Numbered from the stretch's first letter, positions 32,454 to 55,331 are shown. The stretch is DNA of 64,000 nucleotides from Actinomycetes bacterium (GCA_024276425.1 JAJRXF010000180.1:8804-72803); one strand, 5' to 3'. A program made the numbers and translations. The notes: a model not told the origin generated them from the letters alone.

Positions 32454-33191
32454 CTAGAGCTCGAAGAATAGGCCGTCGGCCCACGGGAAGACGAAGTTGA
32501 AGCCGGGGCCACGGAAGAACGATCCGATCAAGACGAGCACCGACCAGAACATCATGAACGTGGTGAAAAGGCTGATGGCGAACTTGCGGTCCTCTGGCTT
32601 GTTGCTGGGGTTCTTGTCGATGTATGGCGCCATTGTCAGGATAATCAGGCCGATCCCGGGCACGGTTACCCCCGCCACCATCGGGTGGAACATGGTGAGC
32701 ATTTCCTGCAGCCCCAGGAAGTACCAGGGGGCCTTGGACGGGTTAGGAGTCTCATTGAAGTTCGCCAAGATCAACAGCGGCGCGTTGACAAAGATGGAGA
32801 AGATGGTGAGAAAGGCGAGGCTGAACAACGCTGCACCGAATTCGACGATAATTAGGTGAGGCCAGACATGCACCTTGTCCATTGGCTTCATCTTGATGTC
32901 TTGGATCGAACCAGACTTGACCACCGTGAGCAGCCGCTGGGTATGACCAGCGGCTCCAGTCATGACTGGGCCATCTGCGACCGCGGTGGCTGTGGCCACC
33001 GCGGCGGCTGCACTCGGTGCGGCCGCCGCCGCCCCCTTGCCTTTGGCTGAGCGGGATCGCTCAAGCAAGTGGGCGGGAATTTTCGAGCCAGAATCGCTGG
33101 CTGCCAGCGCTGACTCGGGAGCCGCAGCCGATTCGGCCTTTTTCCTAGCCTCTGATGCTCTTTTTCGAAGGTGTTCGGGGATCTCGGTCAT
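32454..33191 (-). CDS. Cytochrome b C-terminal part (subunit IV/PetD-like)
   Basis: VWPHL, TPNPSKAPWYFLGLQE, APYIDKNP...PEDRKFA; low-complexity N-terminal extension. Confidence 0.9.
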   Translation of the reverse strand: MTEIPEHLRKRASEARKKAESAAAPESALAASDSGSKIPAHLLERSRSAKGKGAAAAAPSAAAAVATATAVADGPVMTGAAGHTQRLLTVVKSGSIQDIKMKPMDKVHVWPHLIIVEFGAALFSLAFLTIFSIFVNAPLLILANFNETPNPSKAPWYFLGLQEMLTMFHPMVAGVTVPGIGLIILTMAPYIDKNPSNKPEDRKFAISLFTTFMMFWSVLVLIGSFFRGPGFNFVFPWADGLFFEL

Positions 33192-33243
33192 TCGGTTGTT
33201 CCTCTATTCCGGCAATCGATTCGGTGAGTTGAAAGCTGCTGGC

Positions 33244-34035
33244 CTAGAGCGGGCCAGAGATTCCACCATCCTTGCGAACACGCCAGAAGTGAATAGCCAT
33301 GAAGATAACAGTGACGAAGGGAAGCATGAGGACATGGAGCACATACCAACGAAGGAGTGTGTCGGTTCCGATTACTTTGCCTCCGAGGAGAACAAATTTA
33401 ACCTGCTCACCGAAGACCGGGGTGTAGCCCATCATGTTCGTGCCAACAGTCACCGCCCACAGAGCGAGTTGATCCCACGGAAGGAGGTAGCCGGTGAAGG
33501 AAAGAAGCAGGGTGAACTGGAGCAGCATTGTGCCAATAACCCAGTTGAATTCTCGGGGCGCCTTGTAGGCCCCATGGTAAAAGACCCTGGCCATGTGGAG
33601 AAATACACTGAGCACCATGAGGTGAGCGCCCCAGCGGTGCATGTTTCGTACGAGGAGACCAAAGGTGACCGACGTCTGCAAGGTATAGATGTCTCCCCAA
33701 GCGGCGGCGGCCGTGGGACGATAGAAAAACATCAAAAAAATGCCTGTCACCGTCAAGATAATGAACAAGAAGAAACTCAAGCCGCCGAGACACAAGGTGT
33801 AGGACACCTTGACCGCGTGGCGCTTCACCTTGACCGGATGCAGGTGATAGAGCACCGAGTTCATGATCACATACGAGCGATTCCGGGGACTGTCGGTATA
33901 GCCCTTACGAAAGATGGAGCCTGGGCGAAAAATGGAGTTCCAAACCTGACCGCCCTGCACGCTGTTCATCGTGTCCGTCAGTTGAGTTGCTGCTTTTTCA
34001 GCCATCGAGGGCTTGTCTTGAATCGACTTTGCCAT
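33244..34035 (-). CDS. Cytochrome b6-like N-terminal subunit (PetB-like)
   Basis: YTLCLGG, RNMHRWGAH...FLHMARVF, GYLLPWDQ, LHVLMLP...AIHFWRVRKDGGISGPL; start trimmed to ATG 34035. Confidence 0.93.
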   Translation of the reverse strand: MAKSIQDKPSMAEKAATQLTDTMNSVQGGQVWNSIFRPGSIFRKGYTDSPRNRSYVIMNSVLYHLHPVKVKRHAVKVSYTLCLGGLSFFLFIILTVTGIFLMFFYRPTAAAAWGDIYTLQTSVTFGLLVRNMHRWGAHLMVLSVFLHMARVFYHGAYKAPREFNWVIGTMLLQFTLLLSFTGYLLPWDQLALWAVTVGTNMMGYTPVFGEQVKFVLLGGKVIGTDTLLRWYVLHVLMLPFVTVIFMAIHFWRVRKDGGISGPL

Positions 34036-34067
34036 GGAGATTCCTGTGGTAAGTATCGAGGGAAGTA

Positions 34068-34093
34068 GGGGAACGAAAAGGGGGAACGAAAAG
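34068..34093. repeat. Tandem 13-bp duplication GGGGAACGAAAAG x2
   Basis: Exact copies at 34068-34080 and 34081-34093, between the ferredoxin and cytochrome b6 genes. Confidence 0.85.
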
Positions 34094-34096
34094 GAG

Positions 34097-34513
34097 TTAG
34101 CCGAGGCGCATGCCATAGCCATAGCCATGGGACGGCGTGCGCTGGTGGTGGTCGCCAGTAGGACTGGCGTCGGAAATCTTGCCGAGGATGATTACCCCGG
34201 TCGGGCAACGGTCAACGCACAGAGCGCAACGGGTGCACACGTCGTCGTCGATCGTGAAGATGAAGGCATCGGCGGGGTCGTCGCCAGGCCGGGCAATACC
34301 GAAACTCTCCGCCACGGAGTCGGTTTTTTGCATGTGGATACATTTCCATGGACAGATGTCCACGCAACCCTCGCAGGTAATGCATTCTGATTGGTCGATA
34401 TGGATGAACTGTTTCGGTTTGACGGCCCGAGCCAAATAGTCTGCGTCAACCTCAACCAAAACATAGTCGTCCCGGAATTCGGGAAGCGGGGGATTTGCGT
34501 CGGTGTAGCCCAT
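34097..34513 (-). CDS. 2x[4Fe-4S] ferredoxin
   Basis: CITCEGCVDICP and CTRCALCVDRCP; no TM or signal; start trimmed to ATG 34513. Confidence 0.92.
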   Translation of the reverse strand: MGYTDANPPLPEFRDDYVLVEVDADYLARAVKPKQFIHIDQSECITCEGCVDICPWKCIHMQKTDSVAESFGIARPGDDPADAFIFTIDDDVCTRCALCVDRCPTGVIILGKISDASPTGDHHQRTPSHGYGYGMRLG

Positions 34514-34521
34514 CGAACCGG

Positions 34522-34965
34522 TCAGCCCCGCTTTACCAATGGACGGCCATAGGTGCTCTTGGCCACGTCGGCACCCGCCTTGGACTTGCCCCGAGACTGC
34601 CACGACCCCCACATCCCAGACATGATACCGAGGAAGATGATGTAGATGAGCGCTGCCACCGAATCAGAGATTACTCGGCGGGTAATATCGAAGGGGAGCC
34701 AGCCTCCCTGGCTCTGGGGGCGGACAATGTCGCCCCAGCCAAAGACAAACTTGTCGGAGCGGAAACTCCACTCGTTTTCTGCCAACGTCAGCCACTGATG
34801 CGGGACGATGCCGAAAACAATGAACATCAGAAAGAAAATGTAGGCAGAAAACAATGCTGCCTCGCCCCAGGTCATGGTGGCACCAACGGGGCGCCGCTTG
34901 GAATACCGCCAAATGCCAGCGGCCATGAGCACGGAGATGAGTACCGACACCACTAGGGCAACCAT
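34522..34965 (-). CDS. Small uncharacterised membrane protein (3 TM), first gene of the cluster
   Basis: Strong GAGGAG RBS, three hydrophobic segments, 8-nt gap to the ferredoxin gene. Confidence 0.85.
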   Translation of the reverse strand: MVALVVSVLISVLMAAGIWRYSKRRPVGATMTWGEAALFSAYIFFLMFIVFGIVPHQWLTLAENEWSFRSDKFVFGWGDIVRPQSQGGWLPFDITRRVISDSVAALIYIIFLGIMSGMWGSWQSRGKSKAGADVAKSTYGRPLVKRG

Positions 34966-34983
34966 TGGCGAGAACTCCTCGTT

Positions 34984-35057
34984 TACTGCGATCGAACGCT
35001 ACTGCGATCGGGGCGGACTAGGGACTGGGGGCTGCACCCTCTCTCGCATGAGCGAGA
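34984..35057. promoter_or_regulatory. Candidate operator elements in the divergent promoter region
   Basis: Direct repeat TACTGCGATCG (34984-34994, 35000-35010) and inverted repeat TCTCGC-ATGA-GCGAGA (35042-35057). Confidence 0.35.
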
Positions 35058-35372
35058 TTGAGCGCGGTTTTGATCGGCTGACACAGATCAACGTGTGCAT
35101 AATCTACATCGCCAAAGGCTCGACATGACAAACTCATCGAGACCTTCATCGAATGGTCGCTATTTGTTTGCGCTTACAAGGGGCGCTTACCGGGCAATGT
35201 CAGCTACCTCGACAGGCAAACCACCGGAGCATCCGACGCGAGAAGGTGTAGCACGACTTGGTTCCAACTACCGTCATGAGTCGAAAATTCAGGACGAAGA
35301 GATCGTGGTCGCGGGAAGTTTCGGCCTAGAGTTAGCCAGCCTGTACCCGCATGATTTGAGTGAGAGCATTCC

Positions 35373-36188
35373 GTGACCGAGATCCCTGAACATCTCCTGA
35401 AACGCAGCAAGTCGGCCAAGGGCCAAAAAACGGGTGATGGCCCAGCTTCGACCGCCGAGTCAAGCTCGAGTGCGGTTACTCCCGCCGCGAGTGAGACCCC
35501 GGCTCCTTCGGGCCCTCCGGCCATTGCTGCAGCAGCCGCCGCTATTCCCAAGGACGTCGAACCCGCACCTGCCGCCCCAGAGCCACATTACGTTGCCGCG
35601 TCCCGGGCTCGAAACCGGATCCCGATGTGGGCCCTCCCGTTAGTATTCGCCTTGCCCATCTGGGCTCTGTCTTATGCTGGCACCATGCAGCTTCCACCAA
35701 CGGAAGACTTATTGTTTGTCGACGCGGCCCAGGCGTACTCAAGTTGTGCGTCATGCCACGGAGCCACCGGAGGCGGCGGCGTCGGCTACGCCCTCAGCGG
35801 CGGCGAAGTTCTGCAGACCTTTCCCGAACCCGTTGATCAGATGGCCTATGTTGCCCGAGGCTCCGCAGCCATTGCCGGAGAAACCTACGGTGCCAATGGT
35901 CGCCGAGTGGCGGGTGAACTTGGCGTAATGCCTGCCCACAAGGACACCTACACGCTTCTCGAACTCGAACTTGTGGTCTTCTACGAGCGGGCAATCTTGT
36001 CCGAGGAGGACACAACCGATGCGTCCTATCTGGAGTGGATGGACAACCTCCGGGAACGGATCGAAGCGAACGAACAAGACCCTATTGACCTTGACCAACT
36101 CCTGGGCTGCGCCGATCCCGCAATCACCCCTGGAGGCGGAGGCGGAGGCGGAGGCCCGGAGTGCCCCGGACCTGCCTCAGCGGGCTGA
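35373..36188 (+). CDS. Membrane-anchored monohaem cytochrome c
   Basis: Single TM (IPMWALPLVFALPIWALSYA), CASCHG, distal GVMP; N-terminal MTEIPEHLL motif plus Ala/Pro linker; Gly-rich tail. Confidence 0.88.
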   Translation: MTEIPEHLLKRSKSAKGQKTGDGPASTAESSSSAVTPAASETPAPSGPPAIAAAAAAIPKDVEPAPAAPEPHYVAASRARNRIPMWALPLVFALPIWALSYAGTMQLPPTEDLLFVDAAQAYSSCASCHGATGGGGVGYALSGGEVLQTFPEPVDQMAYVARGSAAIAGETYGANGRRVAGELGVMPAHKDTYTLLELELVVFYERAILSEEDTTDASYLEWMDNLRERIEANEQDPIDLDQLLGCADPAITPGGGGGGGGPECPGPASAG

Positions 36189-36330
36189 AACCATTCCTTC
36201 ATCTGACGCTAACCTTCAACTAGTCAAGAAGTCTGATGGTCTGCGTCAGAGTTAGCCGTGTCTCCCAAGTTTGCTCAACTGGAGGACCCCTCGCTCAAAC
36301 AGAGGACCCCTCTATGCCGATAAGGAACTT

Positions 36331-38628
36331 GTGATCGCACGCCCCCAACTTTTTCTCCCGCTAATCTCCTTCGCCCTTCTTATTGGCTCAACCCTGTCCG
36401 CCGTTGAGCCAGTTGGGGCCACACAACCAGCGCCAACAGACCAGCTCACCAACGAGAACCCAGACGTCCCCTTTATTGTGGATGTCTGGGATCCAACCAT
36501 CGATGCCGGGTCCGAAGCAGTACAGGAGGCGATGATGGCCTCCCTGGCCAAGGCGGACTCTTTGGCGAGAGCGGCAACCATCAATCTCCCACCGGGACAG
36601 ACCGCGCTGCGAGCCTCGGCCATTGGTGGCCAAATATCGGTCAGGTTCAAGAACTCGACGCCACCCGACGTTCAGAACATTGTTAACACCGCTGCAGCCG
36701 ACTGGAACGCCGTACTCAATATTCCCAGCGGCGCCCCAGTCGAAATTGATTTCTACTGGCAGCCCCTTGATCCGGGTTTCCTGGGATCATCTCGCCCCAC
36801 CTATATCGAACGTCTGGCCAGCCTGCCAACCCTGGACTACTACCCGGTTTCTTTGGCCAACGCTCTCCTGGACACAGACCTCCGACCCGACGACGCCGAA
36901 ATCGAGATCGCTGTTGCCTCCAACCTCTACAATGTCTCCAACGGCTGGTATGCGGGAACGGGGCCAGTTCCCTTTGACCGGCGCGACTTGTATTCGACCA
37001 TGGTGCATGAAATTGGTCATGGGCTCGGCTTTATCGGAACCGCCAGGAAACCAACGGCCGGCCAGCCAACACTTGATCAGATCCCGATGGTCTTTGACCG
37101 CCTTGCCCGCTACAACGGTGCGCCCATCGTAGGGATTCCCAACCTCAGCTCGGCTCTAACCTCAAACAACCTTCACATCAATCTCGGTGGCGAACGTCTG
37201 CTCCAACTCTACGCTCCGGGCTCATTCGTCAATGGCAGCAGCTTTTCCCACCTCGACGAGAAGTACCAGCCTGGCCAGCCAGGCTCGATGATGACGCCAG
37301 CTCTTGGACGTGGTCAGACCGACCGGAGGATTGACGCTGCGGTTCTCGGGGTGATGCTCGGTATTGGCTGGGATGTCAAAGCCAATCCTTTGACCCCAAC
37401 ATCACTCAGTGTGACGTCTCAATCCCAACAACTCACGGCGAACTGGTCGGTCGATCTCAGCCAGTCGGGACTTCCCCCCACAGGCTATGTTGTCCAGGTC
37501 GCTCAGGGCTCCTCGGTTATCGCCTCCAATAGTCTTTCCTGGGAGTCAAGTTCAACCACAATCGGTGGACTCACGAATTTCGAGGACTATGAGCTAGAAG
37601 TGAATGCGATTGCTGGCAACGGCTCGATGTCCAGCTTTTCCGTCCGTACCGTTGGCCACCCGTACCTGGTGAGGGCAACTGGCGGTGGTCTAACCCGGAC
37701 TCTGAGTTGGGAGCCTATGAACTCGCCAGGAACAAATGGTGCTACCTATAGCGTTGAGCGATCAAAGGACGGAGGTCCTTTCCATCCAGTCGGTTCCACC
37801 ACTGGGACCAGCCTGTTCGATCCAGCACTCACACCAGGCGTCTTTCAGTATCGGGTCACCGGATCCTCGGCTGGCGGAACCAGTATTTCAGCCCGCTCGC
37901 TGTTTGTGGGTGCAACCACCACGACCGTGAGGCCATTCTCACTCGACGGTCAGGTTGCTCGGCTCTATCGGGCCTATTTTGACCGTGAACCGGATGCATC
38001 GGGCATGGCCTACTGGCTGGACCGGCGGGCCGGTGGTCTGACCTTGGAGGCAATGTCGGCTGGGTTCGCCAGTGGACCGGAGTTTGCAGCCACCTACGGT
38101 TCGCTCAGCAACGCCGATTTCGTCAACCTGGTTTATACCAAAGTGATCGGTCGGTCCGCTGACCCTGAGGGCTTCAACTACTGGCTCAATCAACTCAATG
38201 ATGGCATGAGCCGCGGAGCCATGATGGTTGGATTCTCTGATGCCCCCGAATACATCGCCGCAACCGGAACCGTCGCTCCTCAAACCTCCGTCGAAGCTAG
38301 CGTCTACCGACTTTATGTGGCGTACTTCCTGCGGGCGCCCGACTCCCCAGGCTTTGACTACTGGGTCAGCCAGGCAACCTCAGGCACGTCCATCCCGGCC
38401 ATCTCGGCCCAGTTCGCCACCAGTCCGGAGTTTCTAAATCGATACGGATCGGTTGACAATGAGGACTTCGTCAACCTGATCTACCAAAACGTTCTGACCC
38501 GCCAGCCTGATGCCGCTGGCTTTGAGCACTGGACCAGCCAGCTCAATGCCGGGGCGTCGCGGGGTGAACTCATGGTTGGGTTCTCCAACAGCAAGGAGTT
38601 CCTGCTGGCCACTGGCACCCTGCCCTAG
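36331..38628 (+). CDS. Secreted zinc metalloprotease with FN3-like domains and two DUF4214-like repeats
   Basis: Signal peptide; HEIGHGLGF and SHLDE; repeats RLYRAYFDREPD...GFNYW and RLYVAYFLRAPD...GFEHW; start uncertain (TTG 36271 or GTG 36331 behind AAGGA). Confidence 0.8.
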   Translation: MIARPQLFLPLISFALLIGSTLSAVEPVGATQPAPTDQLTNENPDVPFIVDVWDPTIDAGSEAVQEAMMASLAKADSLARAATINLPPGQTALRASAIGGQISVRFKNSTPPDVQNIVNTAAADWNAVLNIPSGAPVEIDFYWQPLDPGFLGSSRPTYIERLASLPTLDYYPVSLANALLDTDLRPDDAEIEIAVASNLYNVSNGWYAGTGPVPFDRRDLYSTMVHEIGHGLGFIGTARKPTAGQPTLDQIPMVFDRLARYNGAPIVGIPNLSSALTSNNLHINLGGERLLQLYAPGSFVNGSSFSHLDEKYQPGQPGSMMTPALGRGQTDRRIDAAVLGVMLGIGWDVKANPLTPTSLSVTSQSQQLTANWSVDLSQSGLPPTGYVVQVAQGSSVIASNSLSWESSSTTIGGLTNFEDYELEVNAIAGNGSMSSFSVRTVGHPYLVRATGGGLTRTLSWEPMNSPGTNGATYSVERSKDGGPFHPVGSTTGTSLFDPALTPGVFQYRVTGSSAGGTSISARSLFVGATTTTVRPFSLDGQVARLYRAYFDREPDASGMAYWLDRRAGGLTLEAMSAGFASGPEFAATYGSLSNADFVNLVYTKVIGRSADPEGFNYWLNQLNDGMSRGAMMVGFSDAPEYIAATGTVAPQTSVEASVYRLYVAYFLRAPDSPGFDYWVSQATSGTSIPAISAQFATSPEFLNRYGSVDNEDFVNLIYQNVLTRQPDAAGFEHWTSQLNAGASRGELMVGFSNSKEFLLATGTLP

Positions 38629-38653
38629 ATGAAACCACTTTGGTGGCCATTGG

Positions 38654-39955
38654 CTACCCCTCAGCTAGCTCTTGGCCAACCTCTGAGGCGGCATCAATGG
38701 TGCGCTCGATCTCAGCATCGCTATGAGACAAGCTTGGAAACATGACCTCGTAGGGACCCGGCGCAAAGGCAAAGCCACGCTTGAGCATGCCGTGGAAGAA
38801 ACCCGGGAACTGACCCGTGTCGGCCGACCGTTTTGCGTCGTCATAGTTGAGGACCTCACGACTATCGAAGAACAACCCAACCAGGGCGCCAACCTGGGGA
38901 ATCTGAACGCTCAACCCGGCCCCACCCAATGCTGCTCGGAGGCCATCGGCCAAACGAGTGGCCGTTGTCTCCAACTGGTCAAACCGGTCCTGGCCTAGTT
39001 GACCGAGTGCTGCCAACCCCGCGGCAGTGGCAAGAGGATTCCCGGAAAGGGTCCCTCCCTGATAGACCGGCCCAAGGGGGGCAACATGATTCATGAGCTC
39101 TAGCGTTCCGCCGAAACATCCGACGGGAAGGCCCCCACCAATGACCTTGCCAAATGCCCACAAGTCCGGGGTCACGCCACTCCAGGCCGTGGCCCCTCCC
39201 CTCCCGAGACGGAACCCGGTGATGACCTCATCAAAGAGTAGGAGGGCCCCAACGCGGTCACATTCGGACCGGCATGCCTGGAGAAAGCCTGGTTCCGGGG
39301 GAACGAGACCCATGTTGGCCGCAACGGGTTCGACGATAAGCACGGCAGTGTCCTGATCGAGCTGGGGTACGACGTTGTAGGGAGCGACGACAGTGTCGGC
39401 CACTGCCGATTCAGTGACTCCGGCCGACCCAACCAATCCCTGGTTGGCTACTCCGGAACCTCCGGCCACCAAAAGTGCGTCAACGTGACCGTGATAGCAA
39501 CCGGCGAACTTGACCACCTTGGAGCGTCCGGTCGCTCCGCGGGCTAGCCGAATGGCTGACATCGTTGCCTCGGTGCCCGAGGAAGTCATTCTCACCATTT
39601 CCAAACCGGGCACCCATTGGCACAAGAGTTCCGCCAGCTGAACCTCGCGCCTTGTCGGGGCCCCAAAGGTCGTCCCCTCTGTGGCTGCCTCGCGGATGGC
39701 CCGAACAACCATCGGATCGGCGTGGCCCAAGATCGAAGCCCCATAGCTCTGGACATAGTCGATATAGCTCCTGCCATCCTCATCCCAGACTGTCGAACCC
39801 CTCGCGTTCTTCACGAAATACGGGGTGCCGCCGACAGACAAAAAAGCTCGCACCGGTGAGTTCACCCCACCGGGGAGCACCGCCTTGGCCCGCCCGAAAA
39901 GCTCCTCGTTGGTTGAGGCTGGCATGGCATCAAACTCTTCTTGTTCTGAGCTCAC
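38654..39955 (-). CDS. hemL: Glutamate-1-semialdehyde 2,1-aminomutase
   Basis: PGGVNSPVRAF, SGTEATMSAIRLARG, FDEVITGFR, GKVIGGGLP. Confidence 0.97.
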   Translation of the reverse strand: MSSEQEEFDAMPASTNEELFGRAKAVLPGGVNSPVRAFLSVGGTPYFVKNARGSTVWDEDGRSYIDYVQSYGASILGHADPMVVRAIREAATEGTTFGAPTRREVQLAELLCQWVPGLEMVRMTSSGTEATMSAIRLARGATGRSKVVKFAGCYHGHVDALLVAGGSGVANQGLVGSAGVTESAVADTVVAPYNVVPQLDQDTAVLIVEPVAANMGLVPPEPGFLQACRSECDRVGALLLFDEVITGFRLGRGGATAWSGVTPDLWAFGKVIGGGLPVGCFGGTLELMNHVAPLGPVYQGGTLSGNPLATAAGLAALGQLGQDRFDQLETTATRLADGLRAALGGAGLSVQIPQVGALVGLFFDSREVLNYDDAKRSADTGQFPGFFHGMLKRGFAFAPGPYEVMFPSLSHSDAEIERTIDAASEVGQELAEG

Positions 39956-45578: not shown

Positions 45579-45653
45579 CTCAAGAGTCAAACACACTTCT
45601 GGGCGAAGATCCTCACATCCTCAAATCGCGGCCAATGCTGCCGATGACAATGG

Positions 45654-46421: not shown

Positions 46422-46558
46422 GTCCCTAGTTGTTTGGGACGAGCAGATAGAACTGCAACGCACCCGCGATTAGTATTGCTAGTAGGAGAAAGGCCATCAG
46501 GGCCACTGTCCTCGCTCTCATCGCTCAACCCGTCTCATGATGAAGCCTGCCTCAAGAT

Positions 46559-47479: not shown

Positions 47480-48279
47480 GCTCCGTCATCCTCGATGGTG
47501 GTCCCTAGTTCGAACGACCGTTGGCTCGCAGCCCCCACAGCATCAATCAGGGCTGCCCGAATGCCGCTCTGCTCAAGGACTCGTAGGCCCGCAGCCGTCG
47601 TTCCCGCCGGGGTTGTGACTGCGGCCCGCAGAACTCCTGGTTCGTCCCCGGTTTCGGCCAGCATGGCAGCCGCTCCAGTCATTGTTTGTTCGGCCAGGGT
47701 TTTGGCGATTGGTCGAGGCAAGCCGGCAGTAACCCCAGCGTCAATAAGGGCTTCCACCATCAGGAAGAAGTAGGCCGGCCCCGATCCAGATAGCCCGGTC
47801 ACCGCATCGAGTTGAGCTTCGGTTACCACAACAGCCTTGCCAACGGCTGAGAGGAAGGACAGCGCCCATGCCAGATCATCATCGGTTGCCATTGACCCGG
47901 CGGCCAACGCGGATGCCCCAGCCCCAACCAATGCAGGAGTGTTCGGCATGATCCGAACCACCGGGGTGCCTTCGGGAAGTACTGACTCCATCCGAGAAGT
48001 GGTGATGCCAGCGGCGACCGATGCCACTCTGGCTGGTTTGGGCAGGGCCTTTGCCGCGGCTAGAACATGATGAGGTTTGGTGGCCAGAACGGCATCAACC
48101 CCTGGCTGGGCGACATCCAACACCTGAACTCCGGGAAACAGGTTCGTGAGGTGTTTCCGCTGGCCAGGATCCAGATCGACAACTACCAATTCTTCTGGTT
48201 TGGCCCAGTTCGCGGCAATCATGCCGCCAAGCAGCGCTTGGCCCATCTTGCCACCACCAACCATCTGCAGCTTCGTCAT
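47476..48279 (-). CDS. proC: Pyrroline-5-carboxylate reductase
   Basis: GGGKMG, RIMPNTP, GLSGSGPAY, VTTPAGTT; start trimmed to ATG 48279. Confidence 0.95.
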   Translation of the reverse strand: MTKLQMVGGGKMGQALLGGMIAANWAKPEELVVVDLDPGQRKHLTNLFPGVQVLDVAQPGVDAVLATKPHHVLAAAKALPKPARVASVAAGITTSRMESVLPEGTPVVRIMPNTPALVGAGASALAAGSMATDDDLAWALSFLSAVGKAVVVTEAQLDAVTGLSGSGPAYFFLMVEALIDAGVTAGLPRPIAKTLAEQTMTGAAAMLAETGDEPGVLRAAVTTPAGTTAAGLRVLEQSGIRAALIDAVGAASQRSFELGTTIEDDGA

Positions 48280-48319
48280 GACCCCAAAGTTATCGTTACC
48301 CGGCTGGGTGTGGACCATT

Positions 48320-48353
48320 TCAGTGCGCCTTATCAGTGCGCATATCAGTGCGC
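48320..48353. repeat. Triple direct repeat TCAGTGCGC upstream of proC
   Basis: Copies at 48320-48328, 48333-48341, 48345-48353. Confidence 0.75.
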
Positions 48354-48508
48354 CTTGATATGCCCGGGGCAACAAGCAGAGCCAAGGGCAGGCAAAGAAG
48401 CGGTTGGTTGGAGCGGCATTCTGAGGGCTTCCCCGACCCCTATCCAACACCGCCCCAACCGAACGATGAATCGTACTCTATGACGATGTTTATGTAATTC
48501 AACCGTAT

Positions 48509-48967
48509 TTAAGAGAAATAAGAAGAAAATCCGATACGTAAGGCTGGTCGAAAAAACTGTTCGATCCATACGTAGATCGACCCAAGCACCCGGTCAAGTT
48601 CGCCGGAGTTGACGAGGCTGTTGTCCACATGGCCTTCAAGGTAGATGCCGTCCTCGTCACCAACGGAGAACTTAGCTCCATAAAGCCGATGGTTCCGTCG
48701 AAGTAGATGGGCGAAGAATTCGACCTCATTGTCAATCGGCCACGGCATGACATAGGCCTCGAAGAAGAGCGTTCTTTGCCCAAGTTCGAACCGGACGGTA
48801 GTGAAATCCTTCTCGTTCCCCTCAAGACGAACGAACCAGCGGCGACTGGGGGCCACACGTTCAACCGAGACTACCGCTGGGTTCGATTCCAGCTGATTGT
48901 CAAACCAATGATCAAGAAACTCCTCAAGTCGGTGCAGGTTCTCGTCTGTCTGAAGGTTCGGTGTCAA
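48509..48967 (-). CDS. YbjN-domain (type III chaperone-like) protein
   Basis: VRLEGNEK..T, LLRRN..LYG..F, GDIYL-like segment, ELDRVLG; typical position downstream of mshA. Confidence 0.75.
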   Translation of the reverse strand: MTPNLQTDENLHRLEEFLDHWFDNQLESNPAVVSVERVAPSRRWFVRLEGNEKDFTTVRFELGQRTLFFEAYVMPWPIDNEVEFFAHLLRRNHRLYGAKFSVGDEDGIYLEGHVDNSLVNSGELDRVLGSIYVWIEQFFRPALRIGFSSYFS

Positions 48968-48982
48968 CCTAGTGGTCCAAGG

Positions 48983-50206
48983 CTATTCCGAACACGGTGC
49001 GAGCGTCCGGGTTGTCACATCGGCATAAATCCGCCGAAGGCGGGCGGCCGAGGTACTCCAGGTGTAGTCCGCGGCCCGGGCCGCCGAGGACACCGACAGG
49101 CGTCGAGCCAGAACCGGGTCACCCAGAATGGCGTCAACCCATTCGGCGTAGAGTGCAGGATCTCTAGAGTCCACGAGATAGCCCGTGGTTCCATGTTCGA
49201 CCAACGTCAGCAAACCACCGACAGCCGACGCAATTACGGGTGTTCCGCACGCCGCCGCCTCAAGCGCCACCAATCCAAAGGATTCAGAACGACTCGGAAC
49301 CAAACAAAGGTCGGCGGCTCGATAGAACGTAGACAGCAGGTGGTGAGGTTGTGGGGGCACAAACCGAACTCGATCGATTAACCCTAGATCACTAACCATC
49401 TGCCGGATGCGCTGTACCTCCTGGGCTCCACCAGTCCCGCTCGCGCCACCAACAATCCAAAGTTTGGCGTCAGCCCGCTCAATTTGCGCCAGCGTAGAGA
49501 TGGCAACATCCACTCCCTTGAGCGGCTGGATCCGACCAACAAACAGCAGGAATGGAGAGTCGTCTGCTCCCAGAGCCCAGCGAGCTCCCGCCTGACTCCC
49601 AGGGGAAAAGAACGCCTGGTCAACTCCGGGCGTGACAATTTCGACCCGATCCCGATCGACTTCATAGAACTGGGCCAGCTGCTCAGCCTCCGGTTGACAG
49701 TTGGCCAATACCACATCGGCGCAAGCCATCACGTTGGCCTCAGCCAAAGCCCGCGCCTCAGGCTCCCGATCACCACTGACGGCCTTGACTCGGGCCAGGG
49801 TATGGAAGGTGGTGACCAAGGGCAGATCGAGCTTTCGTTTCACAATCTGACCCGCTACCCCCGAGAGCCAGTAGTTGGCGTGAACTACATCTGGTTGAAA
49901 CTCGACGAGATCATCGATCACGCCAACCGCAAACTCTTCAACCAGTCCCGGCAGTTGTTCTTTTGTCGCGTCCGGTGGGCCCGCAGGAATGTGAACAACA
50001 TCGAAGCCGGGCTCTACCTGAACCCGGCGCTGCAACGAAGCGTCCCAAGCCCGGACATAAACCCGACACAGCACACCAGCCTGGGCGAGAGAAGACACCA
50101 GCTCGCGAACGTACACATTCATGCCTCCACCATCCCCCGTGCCTGGCTGGGCCAGGGGGGACGTGTGCAACGACAAGACGGCTACCCGCCGGACAAAAGG
50201 CTTCAA
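48983..50206 (-). CDS. mshA: D-inositol-3-phosphate glycosyltransferase (mycothiol synthesis)
   Basis: RVAVLSLHTSPLAQPGTGDGGGMNVY, HANYWLSG, GRIQPLKG, ESFGLVALEA; start uncertain (TTG 50206 chosen to avoid a large overlap). Confidence 0.88.
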   Translation of the reverse strand: MKPFVRRVAVLSLHTSPLAQPGTGDGGGMNVYVRELVSSLAQAGVLCRVYVRAWDASLQRRVQVEPGFDVVHIPAGPPDATKEQLPGLVEEFAVGVIDDLVEFQPDVVHANYWLSGVAGQIVKRKLDLPLVTTFHTLARVKAVSGDREPEARALAEANVMACADVVLANCQPEAEQLAQFYEVDRDRVEIVTPGVDQAFFSPGSQAGARWALGADDSPFLLFVGRIQPLKGVDVAISTLAQIERADAKLWIVGGASGTGGAQEVQRIRQMVSDLGLIDRVRFVPPQPHHLLSTFYRAADLCLVPSRSESFGLVALEAAACGTPVIASAVGGLLTLVEHGTTGYLVDSRDPALYAEWVDAILGDPVLARRLSVSSAARAADYTWSTSAARLRRIYADVTTRTLAPCSE

Positions 50207-50267
50207 GGCGTCGGCTTTCTCAGTCGGCTTCTCCCGCCGGACGAGCGTAGCAAGGCGTTGGATCTCC

Positions 50268-50801
50268 TCATGAGAGAAAGGTATCCACAGAGACTTCCCC
50301 ATCTCGATATCTGCGGCCAATTTCGATCTGGATGGTATCGATGCGCTCGTGCAACTGCCGACGAACCGACGACAAGGATGCTTCAAACTCGCCAATCCGT
50401 TCGCACACCATCCGCAGGGAACCATCATCGAGCGAGTCAACCCCGCTGAGATCACCAGGGGAGACCACAGCGTCCAACTCCTCAACCAACATGAGAGCGA
50501 TCGATCCAGGCTCGTTGATCACAACGGCCCGGCCGCTGGTCCCTCGAGACTGACTACTCAGGATGTCGGGCAAACTAAAGAGCAGGCCGGGTAGATCAGA
50601 TCCATCCCCCTCGGCACCAGCCCTACGCCGTATTTCATGACCAACAATGTCAAGTCGACCCTGGGCAACACGCCGAACCAAGGACACATCATTCTCCGCC
50701 TGAGCGGCCGTGACTCGGGCCTGGCGAAGATCCGGAAGAGGCCGGGTTGTAATGTCGGTGAGAATGTCGTCGTCAAGTAGGCGATTCAGCTGTTCGTTCA
50801 C
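50268..50801 (-). CDS. rsiG: RsiG/AmfC-like c-di-GMP-binding anti-sigma factor
   Basis: Two E-x3-S-x2-R-x3-[QH]-x3-D motifs in coiled-coil segments; C-terminal RRYRDGEVSVD. Confidence 0.75.
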   Translation of the reverse strand: MNEQLNRLLDDDILTDITTRPLPDLRQARVTAAQAENDVSLVRRVAQGRLDIVGHEIRRRAGAEGDGSDLPGLLFSLPDILSSQSRGTSGRAVVINEPGSIALMLVEELDAVVSPGDLSGVDSLDDGSLRMVCERIGEFEASLSSVRRQLHERIDTIQIEIGRRYRDGEVSVDTFLS

Positions 50802-50872
50802 TTCTACAGGCTAGCCGAATGATTGCTGTCACCCGTCCAGGTGACTGTCTGGTACCAGTCTCAGGGGCGGGA

Positions 50873-51697
50873 CTACAGGAGGAGCAACCAGAGCGGGCCA
50901 GCCAAAAGAAGAGAGTCCAGTCGACGCAATCCAGGAGCCCAAGCGTCGCCACGGGGCAAGATTGCCGAACCAAAGATCTGACCCAGCGGACAGCAGGCGG
51001 CAGTCAGGATCGAGAAACTGATGGCGCTGGGACCATCGAAGGGAAGAGGTTTGGCCAAGGCCAATCCCGCGCCAACGACGGCCAAGACGGCTACCCCAGC
51101 AATGGGACCCTCCACCGCGTTGGCCGAGCCGCTCCCAACCAAATAGTCGCCGACCTCATACCCACTAACCAACAAGAACAGAGCAATGGCCGCACCAACT
51201 CCGCGACCAGTTAAAACGATGAGGGAACCCGCAGCCAGTCCCACCGGTAGGGAAGAACGCACCAAGACCCCAGCAAAGCGGGTTACGTCCTGGTCGCTTT
51301 TGTGCAATACGCCAAGATGAGAGTAAGCCAATCCAGCAAAAGCGAGGACTACGACCCCCAGACCGAGGCCAAAGGTGCCAGCCAATCCGGATAGGGCGAG
51401 AACCGCCGCAAACAACGCACTAACTCGACGGTCCGAAGGAACATAACGAGACCAAGCGTGACCAGTCTGAAGTCCTGCAATCGCTGCTACTGGAACCACC
51501 ACGGCCGCCACCAACCACCCCGAGATCGACATGGCAACAACAATGGAGACGAACCACCCAACACTCAGACCAATAGTTGGCCTATCCATACGGTAGGGCA
51601 CGGCATAGCGATCACTCTTCCAGCGCTGTTCCCGATCTTGATTTCGACGGGCACCGACCTGCTTCTTGCGTTGCCTGCGAGTTGATGGGGTCGCCAT
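50873..51697 (-). CDS. Polytopic membrane protein, degenerate phosphatidate cytidylyltransferase-like
   Basis: About 8 TMs; YEVGDYLVG, VEG and RLDSLLLAGP resemble the CdsA C-terminal region. Confidence 0.6.
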   Translation of the reverse strand: MATPSTRRQRKKQVGARRNQDREQRWKSDRYAVPYRMDRPTIGLSVGWFVSIVVAMSISGWLVAAVVVPVAAIAGLQTGHAWSRYVPSDRRVSALFAAVLALSGLAGTFGLGLGVVVLAFAGLAYSHLGVLHKSDQDVTRFAGVLVRSSLPVGLAAGSLIVLTGRGVGAAIALFLLVSGYEVGDYLVGSGSANAVEGPIAGVAVLAVVGAGLALAKPLPFDGPSAISFSILTAACCPLGQIFGSAILPRGDAWAPGLRRLDSLLLAGPLWLLLL

Positions 51698-51706
51698 GGC
51701 CTGTGG

Positions 51707-51943
51707 TTATCCACCAGAGACCGGGGGCAGGACAGCTATCTCGTCTGCCGAACTAACGGCATCTTCCTCCAGTGCCGGATGACCATTCAGCCAAACCTTC
51801 GAACCGGCAAGGACAGCGGAGAACCCCTGGCCAAAGGCGCTCTCCGCTTGGCTCAAGATTTCTCCGACCGTTGACCCATCGAACTCAACGCTCTTGTTGC
51901 CAGCGGCCTCCCGGGCCTGAGCGAAAAGACGAAGAGTAGCCAC
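51707..51943 (-). CDS. MoaD/ThiS-family sulfur carrier (ubiquitin-like)
   Basis: LRLFAQAREAAG...DEIAVLPPVSGG with C-terminal GG. Confidence 0.9.
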   Translation of the reverse strand: MATLRLFAQAREAAGNKSVEFDGSTVGEILSQAESAFGQGFSAVLAGSKVWLNGHPALEEDAVSSADEIAVLPPVSGG

Positions 51944-52056
51944 GCCCCCAAGTTTAGACGCCTAGCAAGACATCCAGGACCCCAAATCTGTTCCCCATGT
52001 CCCGAATGCTTCCTCAACCTGTCTACTCGTTGGTTGACTGCCCTATGGTCAGGCAG

Positions 52057-52653
52057 ATGACTGATCTTCTCCTGACCCGCCATGGGCAATCGACATGGAA
52101 CGCGGAGGCGCGCTGGCAGGGTCAGGCAGATCCACCCCTGTCTAGCCAGGGCCGAGATCAGGCCTACTTTGCCGCACGGAGAGTTGGCATGGTCGATCTC
52201 ATCGCATCGTCCCCCCAGATTCGAGCCTTAGAGACAGCGACGATTATCGCCAGACACCTTGGTCTCGAACCCGTCATTGTGGTCGACGATCTTCGAGAAC
52301 GAGCAGCTGGGCCGTGGTCGGGGCTTACCCGTTCGGAGATTGACGAGAAATGGCCGGGCTGGGTCGAATCTGGAGAACGTCCTGAGGGCTATGAGCTGGA
52401 TGAACCTCTCTTTCAGCGGGTGGACGCTGCCCTGAAAAGGCTGGTTTCCGAATACCCGGTCGACTCTATGCTTGTCCTCTCCCACGGGGGAGTCATCAAG
52501 ACCATCGAAGAGCACCACGCCTGTTGGGAGGGTCGCATACCAAACTTGTCTGGTCGAGTTTTGCAGCACCGAAATCAGACGTGGACACTCGGGGATCAGA
52601 TTCGTTTGCTTGATGATGACCTGATGACCGGCGGGGATGGTGTGCGAGTGTGA
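52057..52653 (+). CDS. Histidine phosphatase (phosphoglycerate mutase family)
   Basis: RHGQSTWN, SSPQIRALETA, LRE, SHGG; start trimmed to ATG 52057. Confidence 0.92.
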   Translation: MTDLLLTRHGQSTWNAEARWQGQADPPLSSQGRDQAYFAARRVGMVDLIASSPQIRALETATIIARHLGLEPVIVVDDLRERAAGPWSGLTRSEIDEKWPGWVESGERPEGYELDEPLFQRVDAALKRLVSEYPVDSMLVLSHGGVIKTIEEHHACWEGRIPNLSGRVLQHRNQTWTLGDQIRLLDDDLMTGGDGVRV

Positions 52654-53249
52654 GTAACGACCCCCACCAGCTTCCGCTTACCTTCGCCCCACCCACATCC
52701 TCTTCGGGGTACTCAGGGGCTGAAGACCAATCCCAACCTGATCAACTACCGGACGAAATGTCGATCAAGGGCCTGGCTCCCGTAGACGTTATTCGCAGCG
52801 CCAGACGCAAAAAGTCTTCCCAAGCCCGGCTTATCAACGGCCGACTGGAAGTTCGAATCCCCGCCTGGTTCAACCACCAGCAAGAAATGGACACCGTCGA
52901 CTTTTTCTCAAAGAAGTTCGCCAAACGAAGCGCAACCACAGCCATCGATCTAGATAAACGGGTCGCCGTCCTGATTGCTCGCTACGGATTTCGACAGCCG
53001 GTGTCCATCCGATGGGTCTCGAATCAGGTTCACCGTTGGGGATCTTGCACTCCCGCACATGGATCGATCCGAATTTCTGATCGACTGGCCAACTATCCAG
53101 TCTGGGTCCTGGACTATGTGCTCTGTCATGAACTCGCTCACCTCACTCATTCAAATCACGGCAGGGAGTTCTGGGAATTGGTTGAGAACTATCCACTGAC
53201 GGAACGAGCCCGGGGTTTTCTGATGGCCAAAGGGCTATCAGAGGCCTAG
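52650..53249 (+). CDS. YgjP/DUF45-like metallopeptidase domain protein
   Basis: RWGSC, IRIS, DYVLCHELAHL, HGREFW. Confidence 0.85.
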   Translation: MSNDPHQLPLTFAPPTSSSGYSGAEDQSQPDQLPDEMSIKGLAPVDVIRSARRKKSSQARLINGRLEVRIPAWFNHQQEMDTVDFFSKKFAKRSATTAIDLDKRVAVLIARYGFRQPVSIRWVSNQVHRWGSCTPAHGSIRISDRLANYPVWVLDYVLCHELAHLTHSNHGREFWELVENYPLTERARGFLMAKGLSEA

Positions 53250-53318
53250 TTGGTGATCGAGGTAATTGGTGATCGAGGCAGAGACTCCAGATTGCACCAA
53301 GCAAAGTCGAATCCGACC

Positions 53319-53528
53319 CTAGGACAAGCCCTGTTTCGGCCGGTCCAGTTCAGCCAGGGTTTGATCAATCTGATCAAGGGAGACCGCTAAGGAATCAATG
53401 TCTGCCATGGTCGGAAGACTTCCAAGTCCTTCTGGGCGATCCAGGTCCTCAGGGTCTTGGTTCAACACAGGGTCTTGGTTCAACACAGGGTCTTGGTTCA
53501 ACACAGGGTCATGGTCAAATGAGGTCAC
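53319..53528 (-). CDS. Small acidic hypothetical protein with (DPVLNQ)3 repeat
   Basis: GTGA overlap with the upstream gene; C-terminal amphipathic helix LDQIDQTLAELD. Confidence 0.55.
   Translation of the reverse strand: MTSFDHDPVLNQDPVLNQDPVLNQDPEDLDRPEGLGSLPTMADIDSLAVSLDQIDQTLAELDRPKQGLS
53450..53510. repeat. 18-bp tandem repeat CAGGGTCTTGGTTCAACA x3 plus partial copy
   Basis: Exact copies at 53450, 53468, 53486; partial copy at 53504. Confidence 0.95.
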
Positions 53529-54625
53529 TGGCTAAGAGTATCTCGACCCACTGAAAGCCGCTGGCGGGCAAAAGTAACCGACAACGGATCGGTGACGTCA
53601 ATGACCTGGGCCGGTTCCTCCCCAAAAGGATCGAGAATCTCGACTGTTGACCCCTCCGGGTCCTCCCGAAGGTAGACCAGGCGCTGGCCGTCAAAGGAAA
53701 GCTGACTGATCTTCTGTCCGGCTCCGCCAATGGACAGATTGAACAGTTCCGCTTGGCTGGCCAGGTCCTCAGCGACGATCCTGGTCAGCGAGACGACCCC
53801 GTCGCTGCGGTAGCTCTGCTCGGTGTACACAACGCTGCTCCGGTCTGGACCGAGGGCAACCGCCCCATAGGCTGGTCGCCTCGCGACCACACAGGCTGGT
53901 CGACCAGGGCCACCGAGATCGACAAGTTCCCCAGACGAATTGAAAAACACCAGGTCTCCACAATTCTGATCGGACAGGACCACCGCATGGAGCCCATTGC
54001 TGGCCGACATATCGAGAAGGCTGCTGCCCTCTTCCAACCTCAGAAAAGGCACCCGCTCACCGGTTGTGAGACTGTAGGTATCAACCTGATCCCTACCAAC
54101 AAGAATGAGGGCATGAATGGCCGATGTCGCGTCCAGGAACCCGACGTCAAGCAACTGTCCGCCCGTTGAGTCCACCACAAGTGGTTCTCCCCCTTGGGCT
54201 CCAAACCATCGAATGTCACCCGAAGCTTCCTGCACAACAATTCCGCCATAAAAGTCGTCGACCAGTTTGGTTGCGATGGTGTCCCCGACGGGAGCAAGAA
54301 GTTCGGTGATGCCCAAGCCATCGTCGAGCACAAACAAGCCCGAGGGCGTCCCACCCAGAACTGAGGGCACATAGCCTTCTGGTCGAGGTGGGGCGAAGTC
54401 TCGAATGAGTGGCGAAAGAGGAACCGTTGCCTCCTCCGCTGGCGTGGCACCTTGGTCGGTACCAACGCTCGTGGTGACCGAAGTAACCGGATCCGCTCCA
54501 AGTTCTGGTTGCCCTATTTCCGCACACGCGCTGAGAGCAGCCAACCCAAACCCGGCCAACATGGCCATCCTCAGGCCGTTTCGTCGTGCGGAGGGCAAGG
54601 TCGTGCGAAGTAACATCACCGACAT
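53525..54625 (-). CDS. Putative lipoprotein, beta-propeller-like
   Basis: Lipobox LSAC after a hydrophobic stretch, Thr/Pro linker, beta-rich body; N-terminus trimmed because the longer ORF crosses the tRNA. Confidence 0.7.
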   Translation of the reverse strand: MSVMLLRTTLPSARRNGLRMAMLAGFGLAALSACAEIGQPELGADPVTSVTTSVGTDQGATPAEEATVPLSPLIRDFAPPRPEGYVPSVLGGTPSGLFVLDDGLGITELLAPVGDTIATKLVDDFYGGIVVQEASGDIRWFGAQGGEPLVVDSTGGQLLDVGFLDATSAIHALILVGRDQVDTYSLTTGERVPFLRLEEGSSLLDMSASNGLHAVVLSDQNCGDLVFFNSSGELVDLGGPGRPACVVARRPAYGAVALGPDRSSVVYTEQSYRSDGVVSLTRIVAEDLASQAELFNLSIGGAGQKISQLSFDGQRLVYLREDPEGSTVEILDPFGEEPAQVIDVTDPLSVTFARQRLSVGRDTLSQ

Positions 54626-54729
54626 GTTGCCACTGGACGTGGACCGACGGGAGCCGCGACCAAAAACTTCCTGAGCAATGTCAAGGGCCCATGGGCGTCG
54701 GCCGAGGCTTTGGCCGATAGCCTCGTCTC

Positions 54730-54804
54730 GCCCCTGTGGCGCAGTCTGGTTAGCGCAGTGGACTTTTAATCCATTGGTCGTGGGTTCGAATCCCACCGGG
54801 GGCA
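54730..54804 (+). tRNA. tRNA-Lys (anticodon UUU); CCA not encoded
   Basis: Acceptor GCCCCTG/CGGGGGC, anticodon stem GTGGA/TCCAT with loop CTTTTAA, T arm GTGGG-TTCGAAT-CCCAC. Confidence 0.97.
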
Positions 54805-54920
54805 CTGCATATGATTCCGCCCCGACGGGGTCGATTGAGACCGATTGCACCTCTCACACCTCACGAGCACCTAGAATTTCACAACACACCCATCGCTGAT
54901 CCACCGGGAGTCTGAACCTT

Positions 54921-55331
54921 ATGGCCAAACAGGTGCTAGAACTCGATACTCCGTTTCGAACTGGTGAGCGGGTCATTACCACTCGCGATCTTCGAGGTGC
55001 ACCAACCGGAACCCCCGGCAAGGTTCGGCTTGTGAATGGACTCTCCGATTCCGGCGGGGGCAACCCCTGGATTCGGTACTGGGTCCGATTCAATGATGGA
55101 CAGTTTCTCGGGCATATCGACCACGATGACCTGGTGCGACCAGCCCAGCTTGATGAGTGGAACGCCAGAATGACCCTACGAGAGGAACAGCAAAATCAAC
55201 CTGCGGTTGAGGTTGAGGAAGGGGCAGCGGCGTCCTTGGAGGCTCCCAGCGACGGGGGTGCAGTTGGCCTAATTCCAGCGGCTCTACTCGAACGAAGCCG
55301 AGCTGCCAAGGCCCGACTCTTGGGCGGGTGA
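54921..55331 (+). CDS. Small soluble protein: SH3-like N-terminal domain, acidic linker, C-terminal IPAALLERSRAAK peptide
   Basis: TAGAAT -10 and GGGAG RBS upstream; GTGA overlap with the next gene; pattern FRTGERV...GTPGKV...YWVRF...DDL. Confidence 0.8.
   Translation: MAKQVLELDTPFRTGERVITTRDLRGAPTGTPGKVRLVNGLSDSGGGNPWIRYWVRFNDGQFLGHIDHDDLVRPAQLDEWNARMTLREEQQNQPAVEVEEGAAASLEAPSDGGAVGLIPAALLERSRAAKARLLGG

Follow-up and report, generated by a model that had tools for sequence, protein, structure and literature searches.

Respiratory supercomplexes are held together by contacts within and beside the membrane. The peripheral-subunit-binding domain of E2 in 2-oxoacid dehydrogenases is a helical unit of ~35 residues that is connected by Ala/Pro-rich linkers and serves solely for docking the other enzymes of a multi-enzyme redox assembly. 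The C-terminal peptide of FtsZ, at the extreme C-terminus behind a long disordered linker, consists of an acidic run followed by [IV]-P-x-aromatic-[LM]-basic and has several partners. The cohesin-dockerin scaffolds of cellulosomes are extracellular and use two different, much larger partner domains. Here, a stretch of 64,000 nucleotides from an Actinomycetes bacterium (GCA_024276425.1, JAJRXF010000180.1:8804-72803) is analyzed, which is referred to as the window and in which positions are counted from the first letter. In this window a short peptide, referred to as the tag, occurs four times, on subunit IV of a split Rieske/cytochrome b6 complex, on a membrane-anchored cytochrome c and on a small soluble protein.

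By analogy, the module to which this tag belongs would in function most resemble the E2 domain and the FtsZ peptide, being a member of neither. Like the E2 domain it is a very small helical unit on Ala/Pro-rich flexible linkers; unlike it, it gave no family match and is found on many membrane respiratory hosts instead of on one core chain. With the FtsZ peptide the tag shares a length of ~10-15 residues, a Pro followed by hydrophobic and basic residues, a variable disordered linker and possibly a shared landing pad, but the position of the tag may be N-terminal, internal or C-terminal and its hosts are respiratory proteins. Cohesin-dockerin systems likewise have linker-borne docking units, multi-copy arrays and lineage-specific pairing, but no link to electron transport.

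Protein interactions on the corresponding side of b6-type complexes have been described. The N-terminus of PetD is reported to be the docking site for the STT7 kinase in the chloroplast b6f complex (PMC13287000). There, as would be the case here, subunit IV offers its stromal or cytoplasmic N-terminal end for an interaction; in contrast to the tag, that end is a short native N-terminus with a regulatory kinase as partner, with no repeated module and not shared with other proteins. PetP is an SH3-fold peripheral subunit at the cytoplasmic face of the cyanobacterial cytochrome b6f complex, and the same source also names NdhS, PsaE and the alpha subunit of ferredoxin-thioredoxin reductase as SH3-fold modulators of electron transfer (PMC9342900). 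A split cytochrome b in Ilumatobacter was already noted by a survey from 2014 (PMC4122944).

Four tag copies in the window and their conservation

The first-pass annotation, made from the DNA alone, had claimed four copies of a motif of ~14 residues on three otherwise non-homologous proteins, attached in each case through an Ala/Pro/Ser/Glu-rich linker and belonging to no described family. The hosts and the copies are located as follows.

32454-33191, minus strand: subunit IV, PetD-like, with a cytoplasmic N-terminal extension of ~110 residues (PF00032, E 2.4e-08, residues 143-225)
33144-33182, minus strand: tag copy 1, extreme N-terminus of subunit IV, MTEIPEHLRKRASEARK (strict motif match)
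33042-33080, minus strand: tag copy 2, inside the subunit IV extension, KIPAHLLERSRSAKGK (strict motif match)
35373-36188, plus strand: membrane-anchored monoheme cytochrome c of 271 residues, divergent from the operon (translation with CASCH, a CxxCH motif)
35382-35420, plus strand: tag copy 3, at the N-terminal end of the cytochrome c and immediately following its GTG start codon, TEIPEHLLKRSKSAK
54921-55331, plus strand: small soluble protein of 136 residues, 20 kb from the operon (barrel in the AlphaFold2 model, no Pfam family)
55272-55310, plus strand: tag copy 4, near the C-terminus of the 136-residue protein, LIPAALLERSRAAKARLLGG followed by the stop codon

The regular expression IP[EA]xL[LR][EK]R[SA]xxA[KR], written from the four copies, was searched in the six-frame translation of the whole 3,953,846-base genome and gave four matches, all of them the copies in the window, so that the translations and the search place all four (4/4) where the annotation had put them. 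From residue frequencies, 0.00045 matches would be expected by chance in 7.9 million positions, a figure that is post hoc because the expression was derived from the copies themselves, and for which conservation is the independent test. None was found in five composition-preserving shuffles. The hosts are indeed non-homologous: subunit IV belongs to PF00032, and neither the small protein nor the cytochrome c (at E<=0.01) belongs to a Pfam family. Likewise, an Ala/Pro/Ser/Glu-rich stretch could be identified between each copy and its host, and these stretches could not be aligned between relatives.

In the divergent cytochrome c, the N-terminal tag is followed by a linker of ~70 residues, a single transmembrane helix and the CxxCH domain. 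Orthologues were found in 39 of 41 relatives, and at all 20 loci examined the N-terminal tag was present, with [TS]EIP[EA]HLL[KS]RS right after the start codon in every case. In 18 aligned sequences, which are 49-72% identical overall, ten columns among the first 16 are invariant (M1, E3, I4, P5, H7, L8, L9, R11, S12 and K16), and the next invariant column is D61.

The same pattern was observed for the other two hosts. In 38 subunit IV orthologues the tags and the segment from G82 onwards are conserved and the linkers do not align; within tag copy 1, M1, E3, P5, E6 and R11 do not vary, and the conservation of H7 and L8 reaches at least 90%. Tag copy 2 is kept in orthologues from the same order. 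It is absent from five aligned orthologues that carry a single module of a longer form (L098, L099, L101, L102, L107), and L103 carries the long form plus a second copy. Orthologues of the small soluble protein, hereafter the barrel protein, were present in 24 of 24 genomes of the family, and 27 of 30 orthologue loci have the C-terminal tag, ending in IPxxLLERS+AAKARLLG after a variable Gly/Ala/Glu linker. At the three most distant loci (L078-L080) the barrel is present and the tag is absent. Searched with a profile built from the four copies of the window, a relative typically gave four strong matches, which fell twice on subunit IV and once each on the cytochrome c and the small protein. Because the cytochrome c, subunit IV and barrel protein alignments all show an invariant tag and diverging linkers, selection acts on the tag and not on the tail. 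At the level of aligned sequences it is concluded that the tag is under strong purifying selection while the linkers drift.

A two-helix module, its hosts and its distribution

Subunit IV from other orders of the class has a longer unit at its N-terminus, AEIPE[HS]LLRRSAEAKAKALGVPVEQVLAEMKGE. An AlphaFold2 model of this long form shows a helix at residues 5-19, a turn and a second helix at residues 23-31, with a mean predicted local distance difference test score (pLDDT) of 83.6 and about 90 in the core. The tag of the window is thus the first helix of a two-helix module of ~30 residues, of which other orders have the complete form; the second helix, which is acidic, is present in the long form and missing from the short form of the window. 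The ~14-residue motif of the first-pass annotation is therefore real as the short form present here, but it is not an isolated 14-mer. As an amphipathic helix it is a poor one: the four copies have a net charge of +2 to +3 each, a hydrophobic moment of 0.19-0.47, a mean hydrophobicity of -0.19 to -0.63 and three bulky hydrophobic residues per copy, and the high moment and broad apolar face of membrane-targeting helices of the MinD/FtsA type could not be observed in them.

As far as searched, the tag is undescribed. Among Pfam-A and NCBIfam models, none covers the tag in the window hosts or in the KorA proteins described below, which gave host-domain matches only. Three multi-copy proteins (P0122, P0124, P0126) searched against Pfam at E<=10 gave only weak, unrelated matches below cut-off; E3_binding (PF02817) was not listed for them in this search, in which the speed filters of HMMER drop most matches above ~0.1. 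For a 36-residue module, Foldseek returned the ribbon-helix-helix proteins VapB, Arc and CopG at E 2.4-8 with probabilities <=0.28 and nothing at E<=1e-03, and the Pfam model CopG_antitoxin gave E 0.032 with 15.4 bits against a cut-off of 28. A sequence search of the PDB with the long module gave three matches at chance level (E 0.24-1.6). In the literature, no paper on such a tag was found with motif strings and related topics, supplementary files being outside the scope of that search. The possibility that the tag mimics the FtsZ C-terminal peptide was considered and rejected: the FtsZ of this genome ends in DDFDVPSFLK with an aromatic residue, whereas the tags, IP[EA]HLL[KE]R[SA], lack aromatic residues, and only one of the four is C-terminal.

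For the distribution, a profile from 33 tag copies (A3) was used and genomes were called positive at E<=1e-03. In the sample of the class 93 of 101 genomes were positive, and in that of the phylum 31 of 401, namely the window genome, 20 of the 22 that belong to its order, all 8 from the remaining orders of the class and two with weak matches among 370 others, both of the latter in genomes flagged unpublished. Within the sampled sequences, the tag is confined to one class. Four genomes of the same order have no credible tag (G031, G038, G212, G264) and also gave no match to subunit IV, which is weak evidence as there was no positive control.

In the genome searches the tag was seen on five kinds of host only: subunit IV, the cytochrome c, a 2-oxoacid:ferredoxin oxidoreductase, an Nfu_N-like protein and the barrel protein. 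Sequence does not relate these hosts to one another, but function does, the tag being restricted to respiratory and redox proteins. The Nfu_N-like protein was found in another family of the same order, in which six genomes were followed, as the extra match, a soluble protein of ~145 residues with a C-terminal tag at six of six loci (L108-L113). Its match to Pfam Nfu_N (PF08712; E 1.4e-03 to 1.8e-03, 18.7-19 bits) lies below the gathering cut-off of 27, and the name is a lead only. The orthologue of this protein in the window genome ends without linker or tag, and there the barrel protein is tagged; in the other family the reverse is seen, with a tagless barrel protein (L080, one genome seen) and tagged Nfu_N-like proteins (L108-L113). 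Because the tagged and tagless states of the two proteins are reversed between families, the tag behaves as a portable add-on, acquired or dropped as a whole unit. In a family with genomes of ~1 Mb, the long module is found on a KorA-like alpha subunit of 2-oxoacid:ferredoxin oxidoreductase, in which only POR domains were matched (POR_N, E 1e-49; POR, E 4e-27) and which has acidic repeat linkers with runs of EEVVEEPAAEV-like units. The loci read are:

L145, 2709-5000, plus strand: KorA-like protein, module at the N-terminus
L146, 2375-5086, minus strand: KorA-like protein, module at both ends
L147, 180-2174, plus strand: KorA-like protein

The hosts of a lineage carry a like module: in the window genome the short form is found on all tag hosts, and in G456 the long form is present on subunit IV and KorA alike.

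When 1.84 billion representative proteins were searched with the long unit, 238 matched at E<=1e-03 and 130 at E<=1e-10. Among 47 long representatives scanned, 8 were subunit IV, 8 cytochrome c, 2 FixO/CcoO-like and 2 other weak matches, and 27 were without a family, several of which match the core of subunit IV or of the window cytochrome c when compared directly. Twenty of the long representatives thus have a Pfam family at all, and 18 of these are either subunit IV, a cytochrome c or an oxidase subunit of the CcoO-like kind. The profile scan proposed in the first-pass annotation hence bore out conservation in orthologues, confinement to the class and enrichment in bioenergetic proteins. Of the two FixO-like proteins, only P0382 lies above the cut-off (59.9 bits against 29.6). 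Several hosts are multivalent, with two copies on the window subunit IV, two on KorA, five ahead of the membrane helix on the cytochrome c P0249 and seven matched stretches, the maximum seen, on the subunit-IV-related P0122. A third module variant with an extra leading helix (..LLAAVAEARGMPESLIERSAKARA..G.SVE.VL..WA..) was observed five times on P0249 and once on P0382. On cytochrome c, CcoO and cupredoxin hosts the module precedes the single transmembrane helix, and these periplasmic carriers bear up to ~450 cytoplasmic residues in module-bearing tails.

In other classes, subunit IV has a long N-terminal tail with a different conserved unit at five of five loci read. One such unit, that of a sister class (37-40 residues; DPEAVY..VL.E...KGSS..VA..RAK.ARV) is found on subunit IV in five of five genomes of its family and, in the five genomes searched, at two or three further sites per genome. 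The further sites that were read (L163-L167) are NuoI-like proteins, a membrane-anchored cupredoxin and a family-less open frame of 160 residues; located sites are:

L163, 529-1764, plus strand: sister-class unit site
L164, 1486-2946, minus strand: sister-class unit site
L165, 1348-2859, minus strand: sister-class unit site
L167, 1453-2577, plus strand: sister-class unit site

The NuoI-like hosts have long Pro/Ala/Glu-rich C-terminal tails with one or two copies of the unit, and on the cupredoxin the unit is at the cytoplasmic N-terminus. Since different units are found on subunit IV and redox proteins in the two classes, the same kinds of protein are marked in two lineages.

The barrel protein, the ferredoxin-like subunit and the neighboring genes

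The AlphaFold2 model of the barrel protein (mean pLDDT 83.2) consists of a beta-barrel at residues ~17-66, a helix at 74-92, a disordered linker and the C-terminal tag. The best Foldseek matches of the model were Tudor, PWWP, chromo-barrel and SAWADEE folds with a best E of 8e-03 and none at E<=1e-03, so that the small SH3-like protein of the first-pass annotation stands as a Tudor/PWWP/SH3-like barrel, but without a significant structural match. No PetP entry was present among the Foldseek matches listed (ranks 1 to 50, with gaps). In the ESM Atlas only unnamed clusters were found at 0.85-0.86, and DUF4314 at 0.80 is a lead only. The barrel protein would be comparable to PetP as a small beta-barrel of SH3-like fold at the cytoplasmic side of a b6-type complex, an association that is here suggested by the tag; PetP, in contrast, binds by its folded domain and without a tag. 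In eight genomes including that of the window, the gene and the b6 operon share a contig and are 17-62 kb apart, and tRNA-like read-through translations were also observed 5' of the orthologue in several relatives.

The genes of the split Rieske/cytochrome b6 complex form one operon on the minus strand (30018-34965), as identified from translations and Pfam. Besides subunit IV it contains:

34522-34965, minus strand: membrane protein of 147 residues at the operon head (without Pfam family, without NCBIfam family at E<=0.1; three hydrophobic stretches by eye)
34097-34513, minus strand: ferredoxin-like 2x[4Fe-4S] subunit (Pfam Fer4 families)
33244-34035, minus strand: cytochrome b6, the N-terminal half of the split cytochrome b (PF00033, E 6.3e-44)
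31577-32512, minus strand: Rieske iron-sulfur subunit (PF00355, E 1.4e-09)
30018-31577, minus strand: cytochrome c subunit of 519 residues at the operon end (PF13442 and PF00034)

None of the four motif matches of the genome lies in the 519-residue cytochrome c, which is thus without tag. Cytochrome b6 is 72-92% identical to the window protein in 27 aligned orthologues. The most similar database proteins carry names in Acidimicrobiia (Acidimicrobiales, Ilumatobacteraceae).

It is unusual for a b6-type complex to have a soluble Fe-S subunit at its cytoplasmic side. Matches to the ferredoxin-like subunit were obtained at E<=1e-08 in 100 of 101 genomes of the class, and its operon-linked matches are 52-80% identical across the class, which places it among the most conserved proteins of the operon. 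In the phylum it was found in 157 of 401 genomes at E<=1e-15, including genomes flagged unpublished, and many other families likewise have it in one operon with b6 and subunit IV. Because it is cytoplasmic and highly conserved, and because a ferredoxin-reducing enzyme is tagged, the subunit is an attractive candidate receptor for the tag. Its C-terminal residues 115-137 align in lineages with the short or double tag, and long-tag lineages mostly align only to ~114. Several of the latter still align to 133-136 and only two lineage groups are compared, so that this is a lead and no more. When the ferredoxin-like subunit, b6, the core of subunit IV (76-245) and residues 1-30 of the cytochrome c were co-folded with a separate alignment per chain, a score of 0.00 was obtained twice; controls were not included, and the result speaks neither for nor against binding. 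A phylogenetic profile for the receptor was uninformative, since the tagless genomes of the same order gave no subunit IV and the ferredoxin-like subunit is distributed more widely than the tag.

Further features of the window are:

421-9132, minus strand: second nuo cluster with nuoB, C, D, H, I, J, L and M, without nuoE, F and G
12834-29022, minus strand: complete nuoA-N cluster, upstream of the b6 operon on the same strand
29071-30021, minus strand: open reading frame (ORF) of 316 residues between nuoA and the b6 operon (no NCBIfam family at E<=1e-05)
53525-54850, minus strand: sizeable ORF without NCBIfam family at E<=1e-05
54730-54805, plus strand: tRNA-Lys, anticodon TTT, directly upstream of the barrel-protein gene
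55328-56296, plus strand: sizeable ORF without NCBIfam family at E<=1e-05

The b6 operon is flanked by two family-less frames, the 316-residue ORF and the 147-residue membrane protein. NuoL of the second cluster matches its model only from residue ~141 of 752, and the match to NuoL of the first cluster (786 residues) falls into two stretches, pointing to an insertion. The C-terminal ~80 residues of NuoI in the complete cluster (19482-20183, minus strand) form a tail that is rich in Asp, Glu, Gly and His and contains no tag copy. Elsewhere in the window, a HelD/HelR-like RNA-polymerase recycling ATPase is split over the overlapping frames 58568-60250 and 60247-61005, both on the plus strand; the first reaches model positions ~457-517 and the second starts at ~490-504. 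Possible causes are a frameshift, an error in the sequence or a genuine split of the gene.

Proposed docking and its alternatives

We lean slightly towards the reading, the simplest and the best available one, that the tag is a lineage-specific cytoplasmic docking module, or 'sticker', that co-localizes respiratory components. A short helix, in its full form a helix-turn-helix unit, would be presented on flexible Ala/Pro/Glu-rich linkers at the cytoplasmic end of proteins that cooperate in electron transport. These would be subunit IV of the quinol:cytochrome c oxidoreductase and the single-helix anchor of its cytochrome c acceptor, and in other families and in metagenomes a CcoO-like subunit, the 2-oxoacid:ferredoxin oxidoreductase and small soluble proteins. 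All copies may bind one common partner or may pair with each other, and since several hosts have two or more copies, it is proposed that the components are tied into one membrane-bound assembly, which would keep the anchored cytochrome c beside the complex and draw soluble proteins to its cytoplasmic side. No other single argument is as strong as the cytoplasmic tails of the periplasmic carriers: cytochrome c, the CcoO-like subunit and the cupredoxin spend tens to hundreds of cytoplasmic residues that their functional domain never touches, which suggests docking. The tether between oxidoreductase, cytochrome c acceptor and a soluble adaptor that was proposed in the first-pass annotation is partly supported overall; the binding, its partner and the resulting supercomplex are inferred.

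Several observations weigh against docking in this form. The co-folding and the phylogenetic profile yielded neither an interaction nor a binding partner for the tag. Homologues of the ferredoxin-like subunit are found in many genomes of the phylum without this tag, so that its presence alone does not call for a tag. In other orders, genomes often hold one tagged protein only, subunit IV, and a pure tag-to-tag model would then need pairing between copies of the same complex. The genomes compared are kin and not independent, so that counts of genomes exaggerate how many independent observations there are. Of the 47 long representatives, the 27 without a recognized domain include many that look like fragments, and the host census is therefore incomplete. 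Finally, two NuoI-like hosts of the sister class score 102.3 and 103.2 bits, under the TIGR01971 cut-off of 113.05; NuoI models are by far the best for these hosts, and the two nuoI genes of the window itself score 90.5 and 105.8 bits with the same model.

An unlikely alternative is that the tag binds lipids and that its basic residues hold tails and soluble hosts on the acidic inner face of the membrane without a protein partner. The net charge of each copy is consistent with this, as is the C-terminal position after a flexible linker on soluble hosts, since membrane-targeting helices sit C-terminally behind flexible linkers, and copies at both ends of a soluble oxidoreductase would put the enzyme at the membrane. 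The low moment, the negative hydrophobicity and the small number of bulky hydrophobic residues do not fit such a helix, however, the second helix of the long form is acidic and integral membrane hosts need no anchor. In addition, the invariant I, P, H, L, L, R and S and the replacement by another unit in the sister class fit a specific partner better than charge. It is less probable still that the tag is a handle for biogenesis or quality control, read by a chaperone, a cofactor-delivery factor or a protease for redox proteins. The hosts are all cofactor proteins or belong to cofactor-bearing complexes, and one resembles an Fe-S scaffold, though with Nfu_N values below the cut-off. They share no common cofactor, with heme c, thiamine diphosphate, Fe-S and copper among them and none in the barrel; a recognition handle would not usually be arrayed in as many as seven copies, and on periplasmic carriers the tag is cytoplasmic, away from the site of cofactor attachment.

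A very improbable reading takes the module for a nucleic-acid-binding unit of helix-turn-helix type, by which respiratory proteins would be tied to the nucleoid or to ribosomes. The module is basic, its best Foldseek matches are ribbon-helix-helix repressors and antitoxins, and a subunit IV with five matched stretches (P0242) as a whole protein matches the Pfam model Xre-like-HTH at E 7e-10 and 39.5 bits. This score is summed over the repeats, with none of the single stretches passing, and the model gave no match for other multi-copy proteins (e.g. P0243, P0245, P0248) or for KorA proteins. The Foldseek matches are not significant (best E 2.4, none at E<=1e-03), the short form of the window has no second helix, and there is no apparent reason for a periplasmic carrier or an enzyme of the tricarboxylic acid (TCA) cycle to be bound to DNA. 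Hardly credible is a by-product of low-complexity tails or of recent copying from gene to gene, without a function of its own. The surrounding linkers are indeed of low complexity and evolve fast, but conservation already contradicts this explanation: the motif columns are invariant class-wide while the flanks diverge, the position of the tag is kept in orthologues of four or more unrelated families, and four matches face an expectation of 0.00045.

The docking reading can be extended, as a doubtful but possible generalization, to deep-branching Actinomycetota with a split Rieske/b6 complex, which might organize their whole electron-transport chain on the cytoplasmic side by multivalent mini-domains of the 'stickers and spacers' type. 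Lineage-specific modules on disordered linkers would pair mutually or via one multivalent adaptor, and could cluster complex III, the anchored cytochrome c or cupredoxin, the terminal oxidase, complex I via NuoI and a ferredoxin-reducing enzyme of the TCA cycle, with the built-in ferredoxin-like subunit as cytoplasmic entry point for electrons.

If docking by the tag is true, a portable, encoded cytoplasmic tag that marks the members of a chain would be a different principle of assembly. It would also explain the long cytoplasmic tails on the periplasmic carriers of these bacteria and would allow members of the chain to be discovered from sequence, as for the barrel protein, the Nfu_N-like protein and the 2-oxoacid:ferredoxin oxidoreductase. 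The ferredoxin:quinone route of cytochrome b6f has long been debated, and a related question becomes testable, namely whether low-potential donors in the cytoplasm feed electrons into a b6-type complex that has a ferredoxin-like subunit built in. Abundant bacteria of marine and fresh waters, whose genomes are very small, belong to the class and have kept the module.

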